Shown in pieces: positions 6,054 to 34,838 of a stretch of 35,120 bases of DNA; positions within the stretch are counted from its first letter, which is position 1, and each line of letters starts with the position of its first letter. The position numbers and the translations under genes are program-made. Source of the DNA: a virus (taxonomy: Duplodnaviria; Caudoviricetes). The stretch is from positions 1 through 35,120 of the IMG/VR virus record IMGVR_UViG_3300010376_000089. The stretch is one strand, 5' to 3'. Below the pieces are notes generated by a model. The model was not told where the DNA came from. It ran no database searches and saw nothing but the letters and a program-made list of their open reading frames with translations.

Positions 6054-6311
6054 CTACCCGCGCACTCTGGCGATGGTGGCTATCGGCTCCTCCGAGGTTT
6101 CATCAACGATATTGACTGCGTCGCCTTGTGGCAAGCGGTCGGGGATATCGATGGTCGATGCCCCGAACAGGATGCCCACGCCAGCAACGCAGAGCGCAGC
6201 AGGCCAGAAGATAAACCAGACGCCGGTCACGATCAGTCCCAGGCCCAGCAGGAACAGGATCGTGACGAGCAGCGCTCGAGCTAGCGAGCCTTGCGCTTGC
6301 CTTTGTTCCAT
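6054..6311 (-). CDS. Small two-TM membrane protein upstream of the portal
   Basis: Hydrophobic hairpin LLVTILFLLGLGLIVTGVWFIFWPAALCVAGV; typical position before HK97 portals. Confidence 0.75.
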   Translation of the reverse strand: MEQRQAQGSLARALLVTILFLLGLGLIVTGVWFIFWPAALCVAGVGILFGASTIDIPDRLPQGDAVNIVDETSEEPIATIARVRG

Positions 6312-6499
6312 TTTCGTGCGTTGAGCGCGAAGTTCGCTCGCTGTCGGGTCTTGGCGTTGGGAGACTTCTTCATTCGGTTGAGCTCAGCGACGGTTAGCTT
6401 GCGGCCTTTCTTGCCCAATCCGGCCGCCTTGCGCAACTTACCCTTGTTCGCCGGGTTTAGGGGTTTGATCGGTCGACTGCCCTTCCTGGCTCGAGCCAT
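6281..6499 (-). CDS. Small highly basic protein (MARARKGSRP...RQRANFALNARKW)
   Basis: GGAGG RBS before the ATG at 6499; Lys/Arg rich. Confidence 0.75.
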   Translation of the reverse strand: MARARKGSRPIKPLNPANKGKLRKAAGLGKKGRKLTVAELNRMKKSPNAKTRQRANFALNARKWNKGKRKAR

Positions 6500-6501
6500 C
6501 A

Positions 6502-6684
6502 CTACCTCCGTTTGGCCCCGGGCGCTCGCTTCGGTTGAGCGGCCTTCTGGGCCTTCGTTCCGTGAGTCCGCCACTTGTTAGCTGTGGCGTAGAAAACGCT
6601 CTTCCCCTTCTTTGAACCGTACCGCTTGCGCATCGAGCTCATGACCTTACGGCCGTGGCCTTTGTAGTAGCGAGAAACGGGAAT
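6502..6684 (-). CDS. Small basic protein with probable ATT start: (M)PVSRYYKGHGRKVMSSMRKRYGSKKGKSVFYATANKW...
   Basis: Not in the ORF track. ATT overlaps the endonuclease TAA (TAATT), GGAGG lies 8 nt upstream, and the first residues duplicate the endonuclease N-terminus MPVSRY. An alternative in-frame ATG gives 46 aa. Confidence 0.7.
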   Translation of the reverse strand: MPVSRYYKGHGRKVMSSMRKRYGSKKGKSVFYATANKWRTHGTKAQKAAQPKRAPGAKRR

Positions 6685-7154
6685 TAGACCGCCCTCCGCT
6701 TCCCGGATATCAGTCGACCAGCATAGGTTCGATCGATCCCGAACTCTGTCGCAAGCCCGCTAATAGCTTCGCCCTTGGCTGCACGTCTACGGATCTCCTG
6801 CACTTGAGCATCAGTGAGTCGAGTGTTCGGATGTGCAGTCGGAGCACTGGCCAGGAGATCCCTAATGGCTTCCCCGCGCCTCTGGCCCATGTACGGCAGC
6901 ATCCGCTTCGCCAGCGGCTCAGTATCACACCAGCGGCTCACAGTCCAACGCCATAGCGTCTTGTTCGTTCCACCGCTGCTGTAGACAGCTCCCACACCCA
7001 CTATTGCCTGGAAGCGTTGGATCACATCCAAGTCCGTAGTCGAGAGCGAGAGACCTCGATTCCGTCTACGGCCCCTGCCTCGATTGATGACTGTGCCCTC
7101 TCCCTCGAAGAGGCCGCAGGCCCAGGCGAAGTCTTCGTAGCGGCTGACGGGCAT
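6684..7154 (-). CDS. Free-standing LAGLIDADG-type homing endonuclease with C-terminal HTH
   Basis: AWACGLFEGEG helix, S.TDLDVI..F....GVG and W.W motifs, then RLTDAQVQEIR...LATEFGID HTH. Confidence 0.85.
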   Translation of the reverse strand: MPVSRYEDFAWACGLFEGEGTVINRGRGRRRNRGLSLSTTDLDVIQRFQAIVGVGAVYSSGGTNKTLWRWTVSRWCDTEPLAKRMLPYMGQRRGEAIRDLLASAPTAHPNTRLTDAQVQEIRRRAAKGEAISGLATEFGIDRTYAGRLISGKRRAV

Positions 7155-8602
7155 TAGCGCCAGGCCACCAGCGGCTCGCCCATGCCAGCGGAGCTGGCCG
7201 CATACTGGTTGACCATACCCGCAGCGGTCAGAGCATCGATCACACGCACGTTCTGGCGCTTCTTGGCGCGTGACTGAGATGGACGATCGAACCGCTTCTT
7301 GTCACCGGGCATTGATCTGACGATCGCGTTCATCACGTGGTTGCGTAGGCCACGGTCCCCGGTGTGCTTCAGCGTGCCGTTGCGCAACGCCTGCATGAAG
7401 GCATCGTAGTCCTCGATCGCGTTGGCGTTGCCCTGAGGCCTGTCGATGACCATGATGTCGAGCTCATCCTCGAGCCAAGCTGCAATGTCCTCAGCGCGCT
7501 CCATGTCCATCACCGCCGCATCGATCGTGTTGGACTCAACGATGTCGTAGAAGGCCTGCTTGACCTCATCCGGATGCATGGTCGACCCATCACGTGGTGG
7601 GATCAGGATCTGCGGAGCTCCTAGGAGCCGATACTCCGGTCCACGCCAGAGTGGGGCAATCGCGAAGGTATCGTGCTTCCAGGCAACATCCACACCCACG
7701 TCAATGTGCTCCCCTCCCGGAATGTGACCTGCGGCCTTTGCCTCTTCCCACTCGGCATCCGTGATGGCGGCGCGATTCGTACGCGAAGGAATGTTGCACA
7801 CCAGACGCTTCCAGTCGCCCAGATCCGTGGTTGGAGATTCGAACTCATCGGCAAGAGTGTCCTCGGTGATGATCGACAGCGGGTTGGCCTGCTTGACCTC
7901 ATCCATGCGGTCGATGTAACGAGGGTCCCGCACCTGCCACTCGTGCATCGTGATGTTGCGACCCATCGAGATGATGTGCGCACCCTCGGTGTGCTTGCGC
8001 TCTACTTTGGATCGGATCAAGTCTCGAGTTTCCTCGAACTCCGACCCCGGTTCGCCAGCGGTGGAGATCATCACGATCTGTCCACGGCGCTTGTTGAGCT
8101 TGCCCTTCCATAGCCGGTAGAGCGATAGATCTGGGTGACGGTGACCCTCGTCGAGGAGAGCGAGCGTGGGAATGACACCGTCACCCGTACTCGCGTCTGC
8201 GGCGTAAACCCTAATCCCTCGGCCACCGTTGCGCAAGGAAACGATCTTGCGGTAGCCCTCATAGACCCGAAAGCGTTTGATCATGCCTGGGCTGGCTCTG
8301 ACGATCTCAGCAGCCTGCATGAACATGATCTCGGCCTGGTCGCGTGAGGACGCACCGATAGGCACCCAGGGGCTGGGTGTGTAGTCAGCGTGGTAGAGAG
8401 CCATGATCGCCATCAAGGTGGTCTTGGCATTCCCTTGAGGAAGGAGAACCCACGTCTCCCGAACTCCCTCGAGGATGGGCTCGACTATCTCGAGCTGAAA
8501 CTCCTCGGGTTCCCAACACTCCCCGGTGTCGAGCACCAGGCGCGAACCGTACGCAACAAAGTGATCAAGGGTGAACGGTTCCGGCCTGGTGGCTACGACC
8601 AT
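7154..8602 (-). CDS. terL: Terminase large subunit
   Basis: Walker A-like PQGNAKTT, Walker B ALLDEGH, ISTAG, ANP, nuclease GVDVA...D and IDALTAA motifs. Confidence 0.95.
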   Translation of the reverse strand: MVVATRPEPFTLDHFVAYGSRLVLDTGECWEPEEFQLEIVEPILEGVRETWVLLPQGNAKTTLMAIMALYHADYTPSPWVPIGASSRDQAEIMFMQAAEIVRASPGMIKRFRVYEGYRKIVSLRNGGRGIRVYAADASTGDGVIPTLALLDEGHRHPDLSLYRLWKGKLNKRRGQIVMISTAGEPGSEFEETRDLIRSKVERKHTEGAHIISMGRNITMHEWQVRDPRYIDRMDEVKQANPLSIITEDTLADEFESPTTDLGDWKRLVCNIPSRTNRAAITDAEWEEAKAAGHIPGGEHIDVGVDVAWKHDTFAIAPLWRGPEYRLLGAPQILIPPRDGSTMHPDEVKQAFYDIVESNTIDAAVMDMERAEDIAAWLEDELDIMVIDRPQGNANAIEDYDAFMQALRNGTLKHTGDRGLRNHVMNAIVRSMPGDKKRFDRPSQSRAKKRQNVRVIDALTAAGMVNQYAASSAGMGEPLVAWR

Positions 8603-13904: not shown

Positions 13905-16569
13905 ATGTCGGAGTTCGATGGCCACGTCAACTTCGGAGTTAGCGCCATAGCAGTAGCTCCTTCACCTGCCGCTTCGGGTACGTCCCTGAAGCTGCAGGCA
14001 GGCGATGGTGCGCTGATGCCGACACCACCATTCAATGCTGCAGTCTGGCCCAAGAACACGGTGGCCAGCGCTGCGACTGCGGAGATCGTGCGCGTCACCA
14101 ACCTATCGGGCGACACCTGCACAGTCACTCGCGGTCAGGAGAACAGCAATGTCCGCACAATCGGCATTGGCGACCAGTTCGTTGCCGCGATCACCGCCAA
14201 GTCCCTAACCGACATCGAGGGCATCGTCACCGCTTTTCAGGTAGAGAGCGCTGGACCCGCTGGCCCTGTCGGCCCGCAGGGCCCTCCCGGCCCACAAGGC
14301 ATCCAGGGAGTCCCGGGACCGGTCGGATCGACTGGCCCGGTCGGTCCTGTCGGAGATGCGGGTCCGTGGGGACCGGCAGGCTCGGATGGCCCTATGGGGC
14401 AGCAAGGCCCCGCTGGCCCTTCGGGTCCTGCCGGTCCCCCTGGACCTCAAGGTGACCCAGGCCCAGTCGGTCCTACGGGAGCAGACGGCACGCAGGGTCC
14501 GGCCGGTAGTGTTGGTCCTCCCGGGCCTGCTGGACCCTGGGCCGATGGGCCCTCCTGGCGGCGCTTCGGACGGCACGATGGGCCCTCCCGGTCCGGCTGG
14601 TCCCCAGGGCCCGGCTGGACCTCAGGGAGACGTTGGTCCGCAGGGTCCTTCGGGTCCGGCTGGCGCTGAAGGTCAGCAGGGTGCAGTCGGCCCTCAAGGT
14701 CCGGCTGGCGATCCTGGACCCACTGGCGCTGACGGAGCGCCTGGTGCTGTCGGTCCCGCTGGTGCGGATGGTCCTGCTGGTCCCCAAGGTGAACCCGGAC
14801 CGGCTGGCAACGACGGAGCTCCGGGAGAGCAGGGGCCTGCTGGACCACAAGGTGATCTCGGTCCTGTTGGCGACGTTGGGCCTCAAGGTGCCCAGGGCGA
14901 TGTCGGCCCGATGGGACCAATCGGCATGCAGGGTGATCAAGGTGTGCCCGGCCCACAGGGAGATCCAGGTCCTGTCGGTCCTGCGGGACCAGAGGGACCA
15001 CAGGGTCCTCCCGGTGATGGCACGGGTTCGGGTGAAGCTGGTCCCACGGGACCACAGGGTCCGGTAGGAGACCCTGGCCCTGTCGGTCCGGCCGGTGAGG
15101 ATGGCCCTCCTGGCCCACCCGGTGACCAGGGTCCGGTCGGACCACAGGGCGAAATCGGTCCTCAGGGTGATCCTGGACCGGCTGGTGCAGACGGCTCTGA
15201 AGGACCAGTCGGACCTCCCGGAGCAGATGGTGCAGATGGTGCTGCTGGTCCTGTCGGTGCGAACGGACCGCAAGGTCCGGTTGGCCCTGCCGGTCCACAA
15301 GGAGACGTTGGCCCTGCTGGTCAACAGGGAGCTGTCGGGCCTGCTGGTCCGATGGGCGCACAGGGCCCTCCGGGCGACGCAACTGATCCAGGCATCGCTG
15401 GTCCACAGGGACCTCCTGGTGATGCTGGGCCTGAGGGAGCTCCTGGACCTGTCGGCCCTGTCGGATCTGCTGGACCACAGGGACCGATCGGAGACGCCGG
15501 ACCTCAGGGTCCTCCGGGAGATCAGGGACCTACGGGTGATCCAGGACCAGAGGGCGCACCAGGACCACAAGGTCCGACAGGTGATCCCGGACCAGAGGGT
15601 GATGTCGGTCCAATCGGAGCACAGGGACCGATGGGAGCTCAGGGCGATCCGGGACCGCAGGGCCCGGTCGGTGATCCGGGACCACAGGGACCGATCGGAC
15701 CTGCCAACGCAACGCCTGGCCCAGAGGGTCCTCCTGGTCCTGCCGGACCTCAGGGGCCCGCTGGTGACGTAGGGCCTGCGGGTCCTGCTGGCGCAGACGG
15801 TGCCGAAGGTCCTGCCGGTTCTGAAGGTCCTCAAGGACCGCAGGGCGCTGCCGGTCCGGTTGGTCCGGCAGGACAGTCTTTCACGTATCGCGGAACATGG
15901 TCTGCCAATACGTCATACGCAGTCAACGATGTTGTCACCGGATCGGACGGCAGCTCGTACATAGCGAATAGCGGCAGCACGGGCATCGATCCGCTGACCA
16001 ACATGGCGAACTCTCCCTGGTCGGCGTTCGCTATCCACGGTGCTGCCGGACCACAGGGACCGCAGGGACCACAGGGCACTCAAGGACTGACTGGACCCGC
16101 AGGTGCGGTCGGTCCTCAGGGAGCTACTGGAGCTCCGGGCCCGGCTGGTGCAGTCGGAGCCACTGGACCACAGGGCAACCAGGGAGCTACGGGTGCCCAG
16201 GGTCCGGCTGGTGTCGCTGGACCTACCGGACCGGCTGGCGCAATCGGTGCTACCGGAGCGCAGGGCGCACAGGGCATTCAGGGACCGACCGGCGCTACAG
16301 GAGCTACGGGTGCTCAGGGCCCAGCTGGACCTACCTACTCAGGCTCGAGCTCAGTCGTGTTCTCGAACGCAGGAACATCGGCTGTGGCCACGGTCGCCCA
16401 CAGTAAGGGCTCAGCCACCTTTGCTGTCGTTACCGGGCTTACGGCCAACCAAGCGATTTACCTGGTGGTCTCCAACAAGACGGCCACCAACTTCCAGGTG
16501 ACGGGCTACGCCATGACAGCGAGCGCCAAAATCACAGCCACGGTCACCTTCGACTGGCATCTCATCTAA
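13905..16569 (+). CDS. Giant collagen-like fibre protein split by a frameshift at ~14535 (anchor domain, Gly-X-Y, CBM5/12-like module, Gly-X-Y, C-terminal beta domain)
   Basis: Gly-X-Y runs in the 13905 frame to GGA at 14532 and resumes in the 14356 frame at [28 protein letters not shown]...SYIA...PW resembles CBM5/12. Confidence 0.85.
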
Positions 16570-28469: not shown

Positions 28470-28736
28470 CTACCAGCTAGCGCTCTGCGTCACGCCATCA
28501 GAGCATGTCACTTCGTAGATATCGAAGCCTGAGCCTCCTCCCACTGTTCGCACGACCTTGACCGGATGCGAGTTGTATCCGCATAGGTACGGCAGTTGGT
28601 TGGATGGGATCGAACTGACGGGTACCTGCTCGCGCATGTCGTGGGGTTGGGCGAGCGATCCCCAGAAGGAGATCGCCGCCACAAAGCCCACGCCGAACCA
28701 GAAGAGCTTTCGGTAGACCCGAAAGAATCGGATCAC
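28470..28736 (-). CDS. Small membrane-anchored protein with YxVxCxDG domain
   Basis: N-terminal TM; LC...YEVTCSDG. Confidence 0.7.
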   Translation of the reverse strand: MIRFFRVYRKLFWFGVGFVAAISFWGSLAQPHDMREQVPVSSIPSNQLPYLCGYNSHPVKVVRTVGGGSGFDIYEVTCSDGVTQSASW

Positions 28737-30631
28737 GGCCTCTCCAGCCTCTCCAGCGTGTCCATCTCGTCGCTGTTCAGCGCAACGCCGTTGCCCGTTG
28801 AGTCGTACTCATCACGGACCACGAAGAACTCGCCCTCACCCTCGCCGGGTTCGATGACTCCGTAGATCTCATCGCCGTCGTAATCGACATAGCGGACACG
28901 ATCACTAGCGCGCAGCGGATTGCCGTACGTATCGCGACCAAGTACCGGATCTGCGACCTTCGGCCTCTCCGGCGTTCCTGGGCGCTGCACCACGATCCGG
29001 CCGACCTCATCCCCAGTCACGTTGCGGACCTCCTCGGACGTGAACCGATAGCCCTCGTCCTGCTTGATCCCGAAAGCGATCTTGTCGAGATACACCCTGC
29101 GACTTGGCCTCGCCTTGACGACCTTGCCTCTGGCGATCTCGATGCCGGTAGCGTCGAACAGCTTGACCTTGTCGCCCAGCCGGATCTTGATGCCCTTGTT
29201 GTCGACAGCCACAGCCTTGCGTGTGGTTCGCAACTCCTTGGCACTGAGCACCGTCAACGCCGGTTGAATCACCGGCAGCTTCATCGCCAGTTGCACGACT
29301 CGAGGGATATTGCGGAACAGCGCCACTCGATTCTGCTCGACCCGTTGTGTCGACCCAGGATCACCACCGTCGAACGCCATGTTCGCAGCAACACCGATCC
29401 GGTAGAGCTGCTGAGCGCTGCACTGACGAGCCAATACCGTGCGACCGTCGTTGGCAAAGATCATGTCTCCGCGATCGCGACCTGACGTGAACTCGCTGAA
29501 GCCGTTGATCGCCTCAGCCTCGAAGCCAATGCAGACGACCACAGCGTCATATGCACGACCACCGATGTAGACCTTGTCGAGACCCTCATCGGCAGACACC
29601 TTGTCATTGAACACCCGCAACCGCACGCGGCCCTCGTCAGGCCTACGCAGGAACGAGCCGATGTCCTGGTAGCGACCTCGAATGTTCTCGCGCCACTCCT
29701 CACAGGCATCGGGCAAACCGGTGGCGTACCAGTCGATCTGCTCGATCCAGTCAAGCATCGGCACTGACATGTGACGATTGGGCCCGGTGCCCAACAGTGC
29801 CTCGACCACGCACTTGCCGGAGTCGCCGCCACCAATGACCGCAATCCGGTTCATGTCACGGAATGGGAACGGCTGATAGAACAGCTTGGCGAAGTCATAC
29901 ATCGAGAGGATGCGCTTCGACCAGTCCATCCTGCCATTGCGATACGTCCCATTCGATGCCAGCTTGATCGGAATCCCCAGACCGCGTGCATCGATCACCC
30001 GGTCTGCGTAGACGAAGCCGTCACCCGATCCCACGCAGAACTTGCGGACACCGGCCACGCTCTGAATGCTGTTGACCGTGCCCTTACGAAGATCGGCGAA
30101 GCGCATCAGCGCCGATCGGATCACATAGGACAGCACGCTGTTGTCCTGGTACTTGTCCATGTTCAGCATCGAAGGCTGCACTGGACAACCCGGAATGACG
30201 TTGAGCGCCATCTCCTCGCTGGACAAACCAAGCTCACCTGGCCGGTTCGATGAGTTGAGCCGGAACCACGGTGCTGTGGAGAAGGCATCGCCGCCCAGCG
30301 TGTTCGTGATCACCAGTGGGCGTGGCTTGCCGGTCAGCACTCGTGCGGCACAATATGCCGCTGCTGTCGGCCCTCCACCGATAATCACCTCGTCGTAGCC
30401 GTTGGTGTCATCGTCAGCCCACTCAGTGGTCTGATCGAACATCGCCTCACGTAGCGTCTCCACCTCCCTCCTGGTCTCGAGCATCGCGCCCAGAGCCGTG
30501 AGGTACATAGCATCGTTGGTGGGGAACATATTCCTTCGAGGTTTGAGCTCACGGAGCATCGGGTTGCCCTTTGCCATCTTCTCGAGCACCGTCTGCTCTT
30601 GAATTGCGAGCCCTTGTGTGTCGACTGACAT
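28733..30631 (-). CDS. FAD/NAD(P)-dependent oxidoreductase (two-dinucleotide-binding flavoprotein) with C-terminal SH3/KOW-like repeats
   Basis: VIIGGGPTAA, VIDARG, IAVIGGGDSG and VVVCIGF motifs; C-terminal DNKGIKIRLGDKV and DTYGNPLRASDRV repeats. Confidence 0.8.
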   Translation of the reverse strand: MSVDTQGLAIQEQTVLEKMAKGNPMLRELKPRRNMFPTNDAMYLTALGAMLETRREVETLREAMFDQTTEWADDDTNGYDEVIIGGGPTAAAYCAARVLTGKPRPLVITNTLGGDAFSTAPWFRLNSSNRPGELGLSSEEMALNVIPGCPVQPSMLNMDKYQDNSVLSYVIRSALMRFADLRKGTVNSIQSVAGVRKFCVGSGDGFVYADRVIDARGLGIPIKLASNGTYRNGRMDWSKRILSMYDFAKLFYQPFPFRDMNRIAVIGGGDSGKCVVEALLGTGPNRHMSVPMLDWIEQIDWYATGLPDACEEWRENIRGRYQDIGSFLRRPDEGRVRLRVFNDKVSADEGLDKVYIGGRAYDAVVVCIGFEAEAINGFSEFTSGRDRGDMIFANDGRTVLARQCSAQQLYRIGVAANMAFDGGDPGSTQRVEQNRVALFRNIPRVVQLAMKLPVIQPALTVLSAKELRTTRKAVAVDNKGIKIRLGDKVKLFDATGIEIARGKVVKARPSRRVYLDKIAFGIKQDEGYRFTSEEVRNVTGDEVGRIVVQRPGTPERPKVADPVLGRDTYGNPLRASDRVRYVDYDGDEIYGVIEPGEGEGEFFVVRDEYDSTGNGVALNSDEMDTLERLERP

Positions 30632-31809: not shown

Positions 31810-32076
31810 TCAAGGTTGGTTTTCACGTCCGAGTATTAGGCCGAGCGCGAGAGCTCTGGTTAGGAGGGATGCCACGAAGGTCACATCCTCCTCTGTCAGA
31901 TCGCCCGGGTATTGGACAAGGTTGCCCAACGCATAGTCGTGAGCCCAGCCGAACATGCCCTCCACGTCAAAGCCAAGATTGGTGAAATACGAGACCAGGC
32001 CGGGTCCCTCGAGTGCGGTGTTGGTGAGCTGGCGCTGACCTGTGAACGTCTTGTCTATGACCTCTCTGGTGATCAC
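31810..32076 (-). CDS. Hypothetical protein
   Basis: GTGA overlap with the ardA stop. Confidence 0.65.
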   Translation of the reverse strand: MITREVIDKTFTGQRQLTNTALEGPGLVSYFTNLGFDVEGMFGWAHDYALGNLVQYPGDLTEEDVTFVASLLTRALALGLILGRENQP

Positions 32077-32621
32077 GACATGCTCTCAAACACGTAGCCG
32101 TTGACCAGCGAATAGGCTCCGTGCTGAAATAGCTCTCGTGAGACGGAATCCCAGTCGATATAGCTGGAGATCTGGTCGACTTGTTCCGCCTCGAGTCCCG
32201 ACCAGCCAAGCTCTGAGCAGCAGAGCTCCATCGAGTAGGCATTCTCCGAGTCCCACTCGCCTCGATATTCCTCTTGGAAGCGTTCCACGATCTTGGGGTC
32301 TGCGTAGTCAGCCCCGTAGTCCATCGTTTCCAGCCATGCCTCGAATGCTTCACCATGCTCTTCGATGGCTCTGGCTACGTTCGCAACTTCTTCGTAGTCC
32401 GGATACTCACCCAGGTCGTGCACAATGGTCCGTGGGAAGCCGTCGTAGTCAGCGATGAAATATTCCTCGGGCAGTAGCGCCGGGGAGTGTTTGATGATCT
32501 GCTTCGCAGCCTCGTGCATCTCATCTGCGTCTGTGGCGTCTACCCACTTGCCGTGTAGCTTGCCCTCGTTATAGGCCGCTAGACAGCCGATCCAGACCGA
32601 GCACCTCGTTGTTGTCGTCAT
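32073..32621 (-). CDS. ardA: Antirestriction protein ArdA (DNA mimic of type I R-M)
   Basis: VWIGCLAAYNEGKLHGKWVD, EEYFIADYDGF, F.E.Y.GEW.S and YIDW...REL motifs; highly acidic. Confidence 0.93.
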   Translation of the reverse strand: MTTTTRCSVWIGCLAAYNEGKLHGKWVDATDADEMHEAAKQIIKHSPALLPEEYFIADYDGFPRTIVHDLGEYPDYEEVANVARAIEEHGEAFEAWLETMDYGADYADPKIVERFQEEYRGEWDSENAYSMELCCSELGWSGLEAEQVDQISSYIDWDSVSRELFQHGAYSLVNGYVFESMS

Positions 32622-33833: not shown

Positions 33834-34450
33834 CGATCTTCGGGAGCGAGTACATCTTCTACATCGAGCTCGGTCTCTTCGATCGTCTCTCCGTTCCTGT
33901 AGATGCCCTCACCGGCGAACCCGTTACCCATCTCGCCGAAGCGCAGCTTGAATTGGAGCTTCGGAAATTGGCCTGACACGTTAATCACGAATGGCACAGG
34001 TGGTGACCAGGCTGTGTCGAACTTGTAGAACGCCGCCTGATCAGCAATGGTTGCACCTTGAGACTCGACGCTGCTCTCGACATCTCCCTCTTCCCAGACA
34101 ATTGCGCCAGCCGGACCGTCGAAAGATGCATCCCACTTCGTGCCCCAATGGACCAGACGCCACTCATACCAGCCGGGGAAGTGCTCGCTCTGTTCACCGA
34201 TCTTGGCGAGCTCGTCTGCGGATGGCTCCGGCACGAACCTGGCGAAGCTCAGCGGTTGCAGCTTGACGCACGTCTGCACGTACTCCTCGTAGCTGAGATG
34301 CTCGGTAGCCATTTCAGTTCTCGAGGCGAACTCCTCTTCGGGGCAGTCCTTGCGAACTTCCTCCTCGGTGAGCGCTGCCTGCTCCACGAACCGCTTGAGC
34401 TCTTCCTCGTCACCGCTGACGATCAGAGTGCAGTGGCACCAGTTAGGCAC
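33824..34450 (-). CDS. DUF1281/Api92 (YubB)-like ferredoxin-fold protein
   Basis: MPNWC, WYEWR..HWGTKW and F.TAWSPP motifs. Confidence 0.88.
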   Translation of the reverse strand: MPNWCHCTLIVSGDEEELKRFVEQAALTEEEVRKDCPEEEFASRTEMATEHLSYEEYVQTCVKLQPLSFARFVPEPSADELAKIGEQSEHFPGWYEWRLVHWGTKWDASFDGPAGAIVWEEGDVESSVESQGATIADQAAFYKFDTAWSPPVPFVINVSGQFPKLQFKLRFGEMGNGFAGEGIYRNGETIEETELDVEDVLAPEDRWF

Positions 34451-34838
34451 GAGTCCAGCTCACTTTCTGCCTCGGCGTGGCTGATGCGACCATCTGCTGT
34501 AGAGCCGCCAATCTCCGGTCGCTTAAATATGGACTGATAAGAGAGATGAATTGATCGAACTCCGACCGTGCCTGCACTTCCCATCGATAGAGATCAAGCC
34601 GGTTTGGAGCTCGTATTTCGGTACGAATATGACCCAGACAATTTACGACCTGATAGAAAGTGTTAACTACGTCCTCGTCAGCCATTGCCAGGATGGCTCG
34701 AGGGTAGGAGTAGCGAGCACCTGACTTCGGTGAGCCATGCGCTGGCGTGAAGCAACCCTCACCCTCGAATAATCCTCCTGCCCAGGCCAGCTGCTGACCT
34801 CGACTCATCTGCAGGATCGCATTCGGCGTGGTCCTCAC
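34443..34838 (-). CDS. Free-standing LAGLIDADG-type homing endonuclease
   Basis: LAWAGGLFEGEGCF, M.DEDVV..F, YRW and ISPYLS.RR motifs; paralog of 6684..7154. Confidence 0.82.
   Translation of the reverse strand: MRTTPNAILQMSRGQQLAWAGGLFEGEGCFTPAHGSPKSGARYSYPRAILAMADEDVVNTFYQVVNCLGHIRTEIRAPNRLDLYRWEVQARSEFDQFISLISPYLSDRRLAALQQMVASATPRQKVSWTRA

Follow-up and report, generated by a model that had tools for sequence, protein, structure and literature searches.

A free-standing LAGLIDADG endonuclease gene at the start of a phage gene, with a duplicated 5′ end and a predicted ATT start codon

How is a phage gene read when a homing-endonuclease gene occupies its start? The question is raised by a locus on the minus strand of a soil phage sequence (Caudoviricetes; IMG/VR record IMGVR_UViG_3300010376_000089, positions 1-35,120; these 35,120 nt are called the window below), in which a predicted endonuclease gene lies between terL and a gene for a small basic protein, and in which codons for PVSRY occur twice, once at either end of the endonuclease gene (Table 1). 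In particular, the terL stop TAA shares bases with the ATG at 7154, and the ORF that this ATG opens (7154-6684, minus strand) begins with MPVSRYEDFAWACGLFEGEG; the stop of that ORF (6686-6684) shares a base with an ATT (6684-6682), the predicted start of the basic gene. The sequence observation made in a preliminary description of the locus is exact (TAATG/MPVSRY at the terL stop, TAATT/IPVSRY at the nuclease stop, and GGAGG 8 nt upstream), and its statement that the nuclease took over the terL-coupled start agrees with the layout, in which the terL stop overlaps the nuclease ATG. Its interpretation as a whole, that a homing endonuclease captured the start of the gene and rebuilt it downstream with a recoded 5′ end and an ATT initiator, is partly supported. 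We consider the best model to be a homing element that works without splicing and carries a replacement 5′ end for the gene that it occupies, and we assign this model a probability of about 0.68, with cleavage, immunity, and AUU initiation as its predictions.

Table 1. Features of the locus in window coordinates.
Feature	Position	Strand	Remarks
terL, terminase large subunit	7154-8602	-	TerL_ATPase E 9e-12; phrog_9 E 2e-55
Upstream duplicate: terL stop, ATG, PVSRY codons	7137-7157	-	Junction matches L020, from the end of terL as far as codon 4
Gene for a 156-aa predicted LAGLIDADG endonuclease; inserted element, 470 nt net	6684-7154	-	
SD-like GGAGG, within the final nuclease codons, 8 nt 5′ of the ATT	6693-6697	-	
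Downstream duplicate: nuclease stop, ATT (6684-6682), respelled PVSRY codons; predicted replacement start	6667-6687	-	
Basic protein gene, 60 codons, IPVSRYYKGHG start	6502-6684	-	Widespread uncharacterised phage family
Another small basic ORF, coupled to the basic protein gene	6281-6502	-	Kept in L001 and L020, 78-81% identity

The arrangement is reproduced in a separate assembly. Specifically, a Logan contig from run X1 matches window positions 6538-7433 with 0 differences, so the ATT cannot be put down to an assembly slip. Since X1 may itself be the sample from which the record came, the match verifies the assembly and not independence. In run X2, which belongs to a second study, a 151-nt contig matches part of the nuclease gene, again with 0 differences. 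A search for a sigma-70 promoter at the locus found no match. The 3′ end of the nuclease gene can pair with rebuilt codons 2-5 in a hairpin (6670-6705, minus strand) that covers part of the GGAGG and leaves the ATT in the loop; as a functional element this hairpin was rejected, its folding being non-significant (z 0.21; folding as good is seen in 39 of 500 shuffles and in 73 of 1052 local windows), and no hairpin excess was seen at the remaining ATT loci of the gene family.

By motif, fold, and structural matches, the inserted gene is a single-motif LAGLIDADG endonuclease, with predicted activity. In particular, it matches phrog_5046 (E 5e-14) and Pfam LAGLIDADG_3 (E 2e-4; score 22.0, slightly below the curated cut-off of 22.5), and its motif WACGLFEGEG is invariant in 9 of 9 aligned rows. 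Its structure model (pLDDT 86) has an order of secondary-structure elements that fits the alpha-beta-beta-alpha-beta-beta-alpha LAGLIDADG fold, adds a C-terminal three-helix (HTH-like) domain, and finds as its best Foldseek matches I-CvuI and I-CreI, both homodimeric LAGLIDADG enzymes (E about 3e-5, TM about 0.5). With 5439 representatives at E <=0.001, this is a large family, and an M-P-x-x-x-Y start is present in 3 of the 165 homologues retrieved, indicating that PVSRY is not a trait of the nuclease family. A search of viral contigs for nuclease relatives with DNA context found none, and IMG/VR yielded no further LAGLIDADG gene starting M-P-x-x-x-Y. One related LAGLIDADG protein, P0054, starts MPTSEY, which matches the start of the basic-family member P0020, and judged from these sequences is possibly a second start-capture event.

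Elsewhere in the window, a second single-motif LAGLIDADG gene (34443-34838, minus strand; phrog_5046, E 2e-15) overlaps both of its neighbours, and inspection by eye for a duplicated N-terminus revealed none. The window also encodes a long collagen-like G-X-Y repeat protein spread over two overlapping frames (13905-16569, plus strand; ORFs 13905-14669 and 14356-16569), a split that suggests a frameshift or an assembly error; a protein of 632 aa that has no PHROG match and in which a GxGxxA-type nucleotide-binding motif was seen by eye (28733-30631, minus strand); and an anti-restriction protein (32073-32621, minus strand; phrog_2059).

The nuclease gene is free-standing, outside any self-splicing intron or intein: its ORF occupies the entire insert, the locus has 0 Rfam matches at E up to 1, and the PVSRY copies are 470 nt apart and thus out of frame. 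The same observations bear on an alternative that the preliminary description had offered, namely that the two copies are joined in expression by RNA splicing or ribosome hopping, the protein starting at the upstream ATG. An ORF that fills the insert leaves no room for a ribozyme, and out-of-frame copies exclude an intein. In favour of joining, the two copies do not differ in codons 2, 5, and 6, and the landing site has an SD-like run in front of it, a feature shared with T4 gene 60; set against these likenesses, no stop follows the take-off codon and the gap is 470 nt, compared with 50 nt in gene 60 as given in the accessible text of that work (PMC5009743). Moreover, two other family loci (L144 and L166, below) have ATT but no upstream copy from which a ribosome could hop. 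We found no support for either process and regard joining of the copies as highly improbable.

If the copies are expressed separately, the basic protein requires a start of its own, and the gene family indicates where it lies. That the protein needs the residues after the ATT follows from three properties of the family: an M/V-P-x-x-x-Y start is found in 39 of 42 homologues; an alignment from which 3 homologues were left out shows no variation at P2, Y6, and G11 in any of its 40 rows; and in 52 of 57 longer phage proteins the basic module stands at the very beginning. Homologues starting at the internal methionine (MSSMRK), which the preliminary description had named as the result that would count against it, were looked for and number 0 of 42. 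Upstream of the ATT, as far as the preceding stop, the frame contains no ATG, GTG, or TTG, leaving the ATT as the only plausible start of the ORF, as had been predicted, and ATT recurs in the family. The gene thus has the sequence characteristics of an AUU start: ATT at the homologous start position, a Shine-Dalgarno (SD) run 8 nt upstream, and no alternative in-frame start.

The basic protein matched no Pfam or PHROG family, its fold search gave no match at E up to 0.001, and in the Atlas it falls only in unnamed viral clusters. A scan of GTDB genomes for its family found nothing, and a scan of annotated phages found one weak match, a hypothetical protein. From its charge and its place in the packaging module we infer a putative nucleic-acid-binding virion or packaging peptide. 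In 52 of the 57 longer proteins (P0213-P0269), a basic module of ~37 residues fronts proteins of up to 986 aa with varied remainders; the module possibly acts as a transferable N-terminal tag for targeting or binding.

Relatives reveal the site without the insert. In L020, whose terL is 85% identical to that of the window, terL is followed directly by the basic gene, with overlapping stop and ATG and with the nuclease absent; in L001 (terL identity 94%), the GTG of the basic gene lies one base past the terL stop, and the nuclease is absent at the site. These are the empty-site relatives that the preliminary description had expected, with terL joined directly to a P-V-x-x-Y-Y gene. The L001 record, which is 64% complete, contains no nuclease homologue. 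Both alleles occur in run X1: one contig (depth 17) carries the insert, and another (depth 6) crosses the junction without any difference from L001. The nuclease gene is therefore optional among close relatives, being absent from L001 and L020 and present in one of two alleles in X1. A pattern scan with the terL end gave 24 loci and no new allele with the basic gene.

Comparison of the two copies with these empty alleles bears on where each copy came from. Over codons 1-6 the copies differ at 5 of 18 nt, and 4 of these differences are synonymous and lie in codons 3-4; the probability of PVSRY arising at one fixed position by chance is about 4e-7, given local residue frequencies. Measured against L001 over codons 2-6, the downstream copy has 2 nt differences and the upstream copy 4, and the serine codon TCT is common to the downstream copy and L001, whereas the upstream copy has AGC. 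No path of single synonymous steps leads between the serine codons AGC and TCT, which makes two pre-existing alleles likelier than recoding in place. On a comparison of two empty alleles, the downstream copy is more likely an imported natural allele than a new recoding, and the upstream copy probably began the basic gene originally and now serves as the N-terminus of the nuclease; L001 and L020, the only two empty alleles with DNA, are mutually discordant as to which copy is native. The idea of a "recoded" 5′ end is weakened accordingly by the closer match of the downstream copy to the natural allele L001 (2 vs 4 nt) and by the TCT that they share. The proposed insertion point, six codons into the gene, cannot be fixed, both copies matching empty alleles along the whole duplicated stretch of ~21 nt. 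The ATG sits 15-18 nt from the end of this stretch, which puts it at the limit of, or outside, the 18-22 bp that LAGLIDADG targets span in the accessible text of PMC7487136, a point against the model.

We then scanned for other non-canonical starts in the basic gene family. A general pattern scan of viral contigs returned at least 119 loci (about 190 estimated), and scans for ATT, ATC, and ATA starts returned 6 viral and 33 metagenome matches, of which 1 and 28, respectively, were unrelated genes and were dropped. The remaining family members (5 + 5) represent 5 distinct loci, all with ATT: the window itself (L150), L003, L144, L166, and L181. Among the matches listed, distinct loci number at least 98 (84 ATG, 8 GTG, 1 TTG, and 5 ATT); the canonical loci come from the viral collection only and the ATT loci from two collections, so that 5/98 is no frequency. 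An SD-like run lies 7-9 nt upstream of the start in 5/5 ATT loci, compared with an SD-like run in 60/93 canonical loci among the matches listed, a non-significant difference (p=0.16).

A nuclease gene, identified with custom profiles and motifs, lies directly upstream of the basic gene in 3/5 ATT loci and in 0/93 ATG, GTG, or TTG loci among the matches listed (Fisher p=7e-5, a value that overstates the strength of the association since related loci are not independent). Restricting the comparison to the 66 listed loci with at least 1 kb of upstream sequence gives p=2e-4, again with loci that are not independent, and within the terS-linked group an upstream nuclease is present in 2/2 ATT and 0/6 canonical loci among the matches listed (p=0.036, likewise an overstatement for related loci). 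The three nucleases are of different types: LAGLIDADG in the window, endonuclease VII in L144, and HNH (phrog_2255) in L166. The last was missed by Pfam alone, and PHROGs and custom profiles were added; with PHROGs, 0 nucleases were found upstream of the 89 canonical loci with an upstream ORF among the matches listed, and 3 of 3 controls were positive. The ATT alleles are not mutual nearest neighbours, each having nearest neighbours with canonical starts in a 63-nt comparison, which suggests, as far as 63-nt nearest neighbours go, that they arose separately.

The other ATT loci differ from that in the window. Neither nuclease gene, in L144 or in L166, has a duplicated N-terminus, so what these loci have in common with the window locus is the ATT together with the embedded ribosome site, and start capture is not part of it. 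L003 and L181 have ATT without a nuclease directly upstream, indicating that ATT is not only an immunity mark; in L181 an HNH gene lies one gene further upstream. In L003, a 20-nt insert interrupts a region otherwise near-identical to L008 (L003:2979-3050 vs L008:2999-3050), putting GTG at the native start, followed by GGAG and ATT, where L008 and L023 have a coupled ATG. The two sequences also differ in a sharp diverged patch over codons 2-16 (29/45 nt identical, compared with 42-45/45 in nine flanking blocks), and from its sequence the insert may be the stub of a lost nuclease element. The L144 locus is flanked by endonuclease VII genes on both sides. In L029 and L132, LAGLIDADG genes of the same broad family lie directly downstream of basic genes that start with GTG or ATG, and the gene in L029 is coupled to the basic gene through a stop/start overlap.

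These loci and the two copies in the window together bear on a second alternative, in which illegitimate recombination with a short duplication placed the nuclease gene at a junction that was not targeted, and ATT was favoured solely because it lowers the output of a gene that had acquired a strong ribosome site. Such insertion is consistent with the ATT of L003 and L181, which have no adjacent nuclease, and with the L003 insert, which brings GGAG and ATT to a place where its relatives have a coupled ATG. It also has precedents among T4-like phages in the accessible text of PMC2988022, where the cut sites of free-standing nucleases often lie hundreds or thousands of bp away from the nuclease gene and transposition-like insertions are described. 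It does not account, however, for the change of serine codon between AGC and TCT or for the closeness of the downstream copy to L001, and the patch over codons 2-16 that separates L003 from L008 is the pattern expected of allele exchange at the gene start. We judge non-targeted insertion unlikely.

A third alternative is that the insertion crippled the basic gene, the ATT being a lost start and the ORF a young pseudogene or barely translated. The ATT-start basic gene of L144 (on the same contig as L162) bears a one-base frameshift after about codon 26 in a single assembly, which could be decay, an assembly error, or a programmed shift and fits decay; moreover, the basic gene is possibly dispensable, and AUU initiates at only 1-2% of the AUG level in an E. 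coli reporter, with infC and pcnB as natural cases, as given in the accessible part of that source (10.1101/063800). On the other side, the ORF in the window is intact: compared with L001, 37 codons are the same, 16 differ synonymously, and 7 non-synonymously, with no stop or frameshift, a mostly synonymous change that may predate the insertion. Among the 97 loci listed, no other non-canonical start without an in-frame canonical one was found. Finally, all 5 of the 5 ATT/ATC/ATA-class loci have ATT and none has ATA, although G to A is the easier change. A crippled gene is, in our judgement, less probable still than a non-targeted insertion.

Under the preferred model, that of a homing element supplying a new 5′ end, the nuclease is read, as the layout shows, from the native, terL-coupled ATG of the basic gene and would cut empty alleles at or near the terL/basic-gene junction. 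The element would have come with a short piece of the allele of a related phage (stop, start, and codons 2-6), its right side joined by homology in the gene body and its left side by an in-frame fusion of the nuclease to the first codons of the recipient. The spelling differences, perhaps including the change from ATG to ATT, would make the rebuilt allele resistant. The AUU would be read as fMet at a low rate, aided by the GGAGG and by ribosomes that end the nuclease at the overlapping stop, and would likely also hold output low, nearer to the level under terL coupling; infC and pcnB are precedents for initiation at AUU. In the accessible text of two studies, AUU starts are repressed by IF3 (PMC5472188) and non-canonical starts depend on context (PMC5499595). 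The role of the ATT may be immunity, dosage, or both.

Known systems share parts of this design. Fungal mitochondrial mORFs, which form gene hybrids in Allomyces macrogynus (atp6) and Glomus (atp6, atp9, cox2, nad3), resemble the phage element in that an endonuclease ORF sits in a conserved gene, carries a diverged duplicate end, and leaves the gene whole without splicing (PMC3630166, as far as its accessible text describes them). They act at the 3′ end, whereas the phage element replaces the 5′ end; their duplicates are 50-240 nt, compared with about 21 nt in the phage; and, unlike in mORFs, the displaced native piece would be reused as the start of the nuclease, and a new ribosome site with ATT would be required. 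WHO elements, which occupy FBA1 in Torulaspora and Lachancea, are likewise LAGLIDADG-type elements without splicing, for which resistance is proposed from allele differences in the carried gene fragment; in the accessible text they are yeast nuclear, replace a 3′ end, are separately transcribed, and have been shown to cut in an allele-specific manner (PMC7282813), whereas the phage element is at a 5′ end, lies in the same operon, and has a predicted cutting activity. The phage element would thus work like mORFs and WHO elements yet replaces the opposite end, and hence we do not class it with them. A mitochondrial precedent for 5′ duplication is provided by free GIY genes that are duplicated together with the N-terminus of atp9 (PMC7487136, accessible text).

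Among phages, the nuclease gene is free-standing in the T4 sense and resembles the seg and mob genes of T4-like phages, known for intronless homing, in lying outside introns, in being coupled to the upstream gene, and in being optional among relatives; the overlap between mobE and the nrdA stop is of the same kind as that between the nuclease gene and the terL stop here. Where known insertions lie within T4-like genes (mobE in Aeh1 nrdA, mobA in gene 39/60), the interrupted gene yields two separate polypeptides, unlike here, and the free-standing ORFs start with AUG or GUG, with no rebuilt host start described in the accessible text (PMC2988022). Like infC and pcnB, the basic gene has an ATT behind a Shine-Dalgarno run; in those genes AUU is a stable regulatory feature of the host gene, as the accessible parts of the sources have it (10.1101/063800, PMC5472188), whereas the phage ATT is a derived state that occurs patchily among family members and is linked to the insertion of nucleases. 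In the literature searched, which included few subscription papers and no supplements, we found no phage nuclease that rebuilds the start of a gene and no ATT tied to such insertions.

New here are the pair of filled and empty alleles in one run and the link, within one gene family, of ATT to three nuclease types. That a very rare start codon is tied to three unrelated nuclease types in a single family makes the reason for AUU directly testable. A wider generalisation, that start-invading nucleases of any family repeatedly rebuild phage genes on AUU specifically, we hold to be doubtful. If it were true, AUU starts would be a general scar of selfish insertion, caused either by the G of ATG acting as a shared cleavage determinant or by coupled AUU reinitiation far above the efficiency implied by reporters, and many AUU genes would be hidden from gene callers and under IF3 control. 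For annotation, genes that start with ATT are missed or truncated by callers restricted to ATG, GTG, and TTG. For the biology of phages, the locus points to a way in which a homing nuclease can sit within a gene while needing neither an intron nor an intein and leaving the protein unsplit: it would take the start of the gene and supply another.
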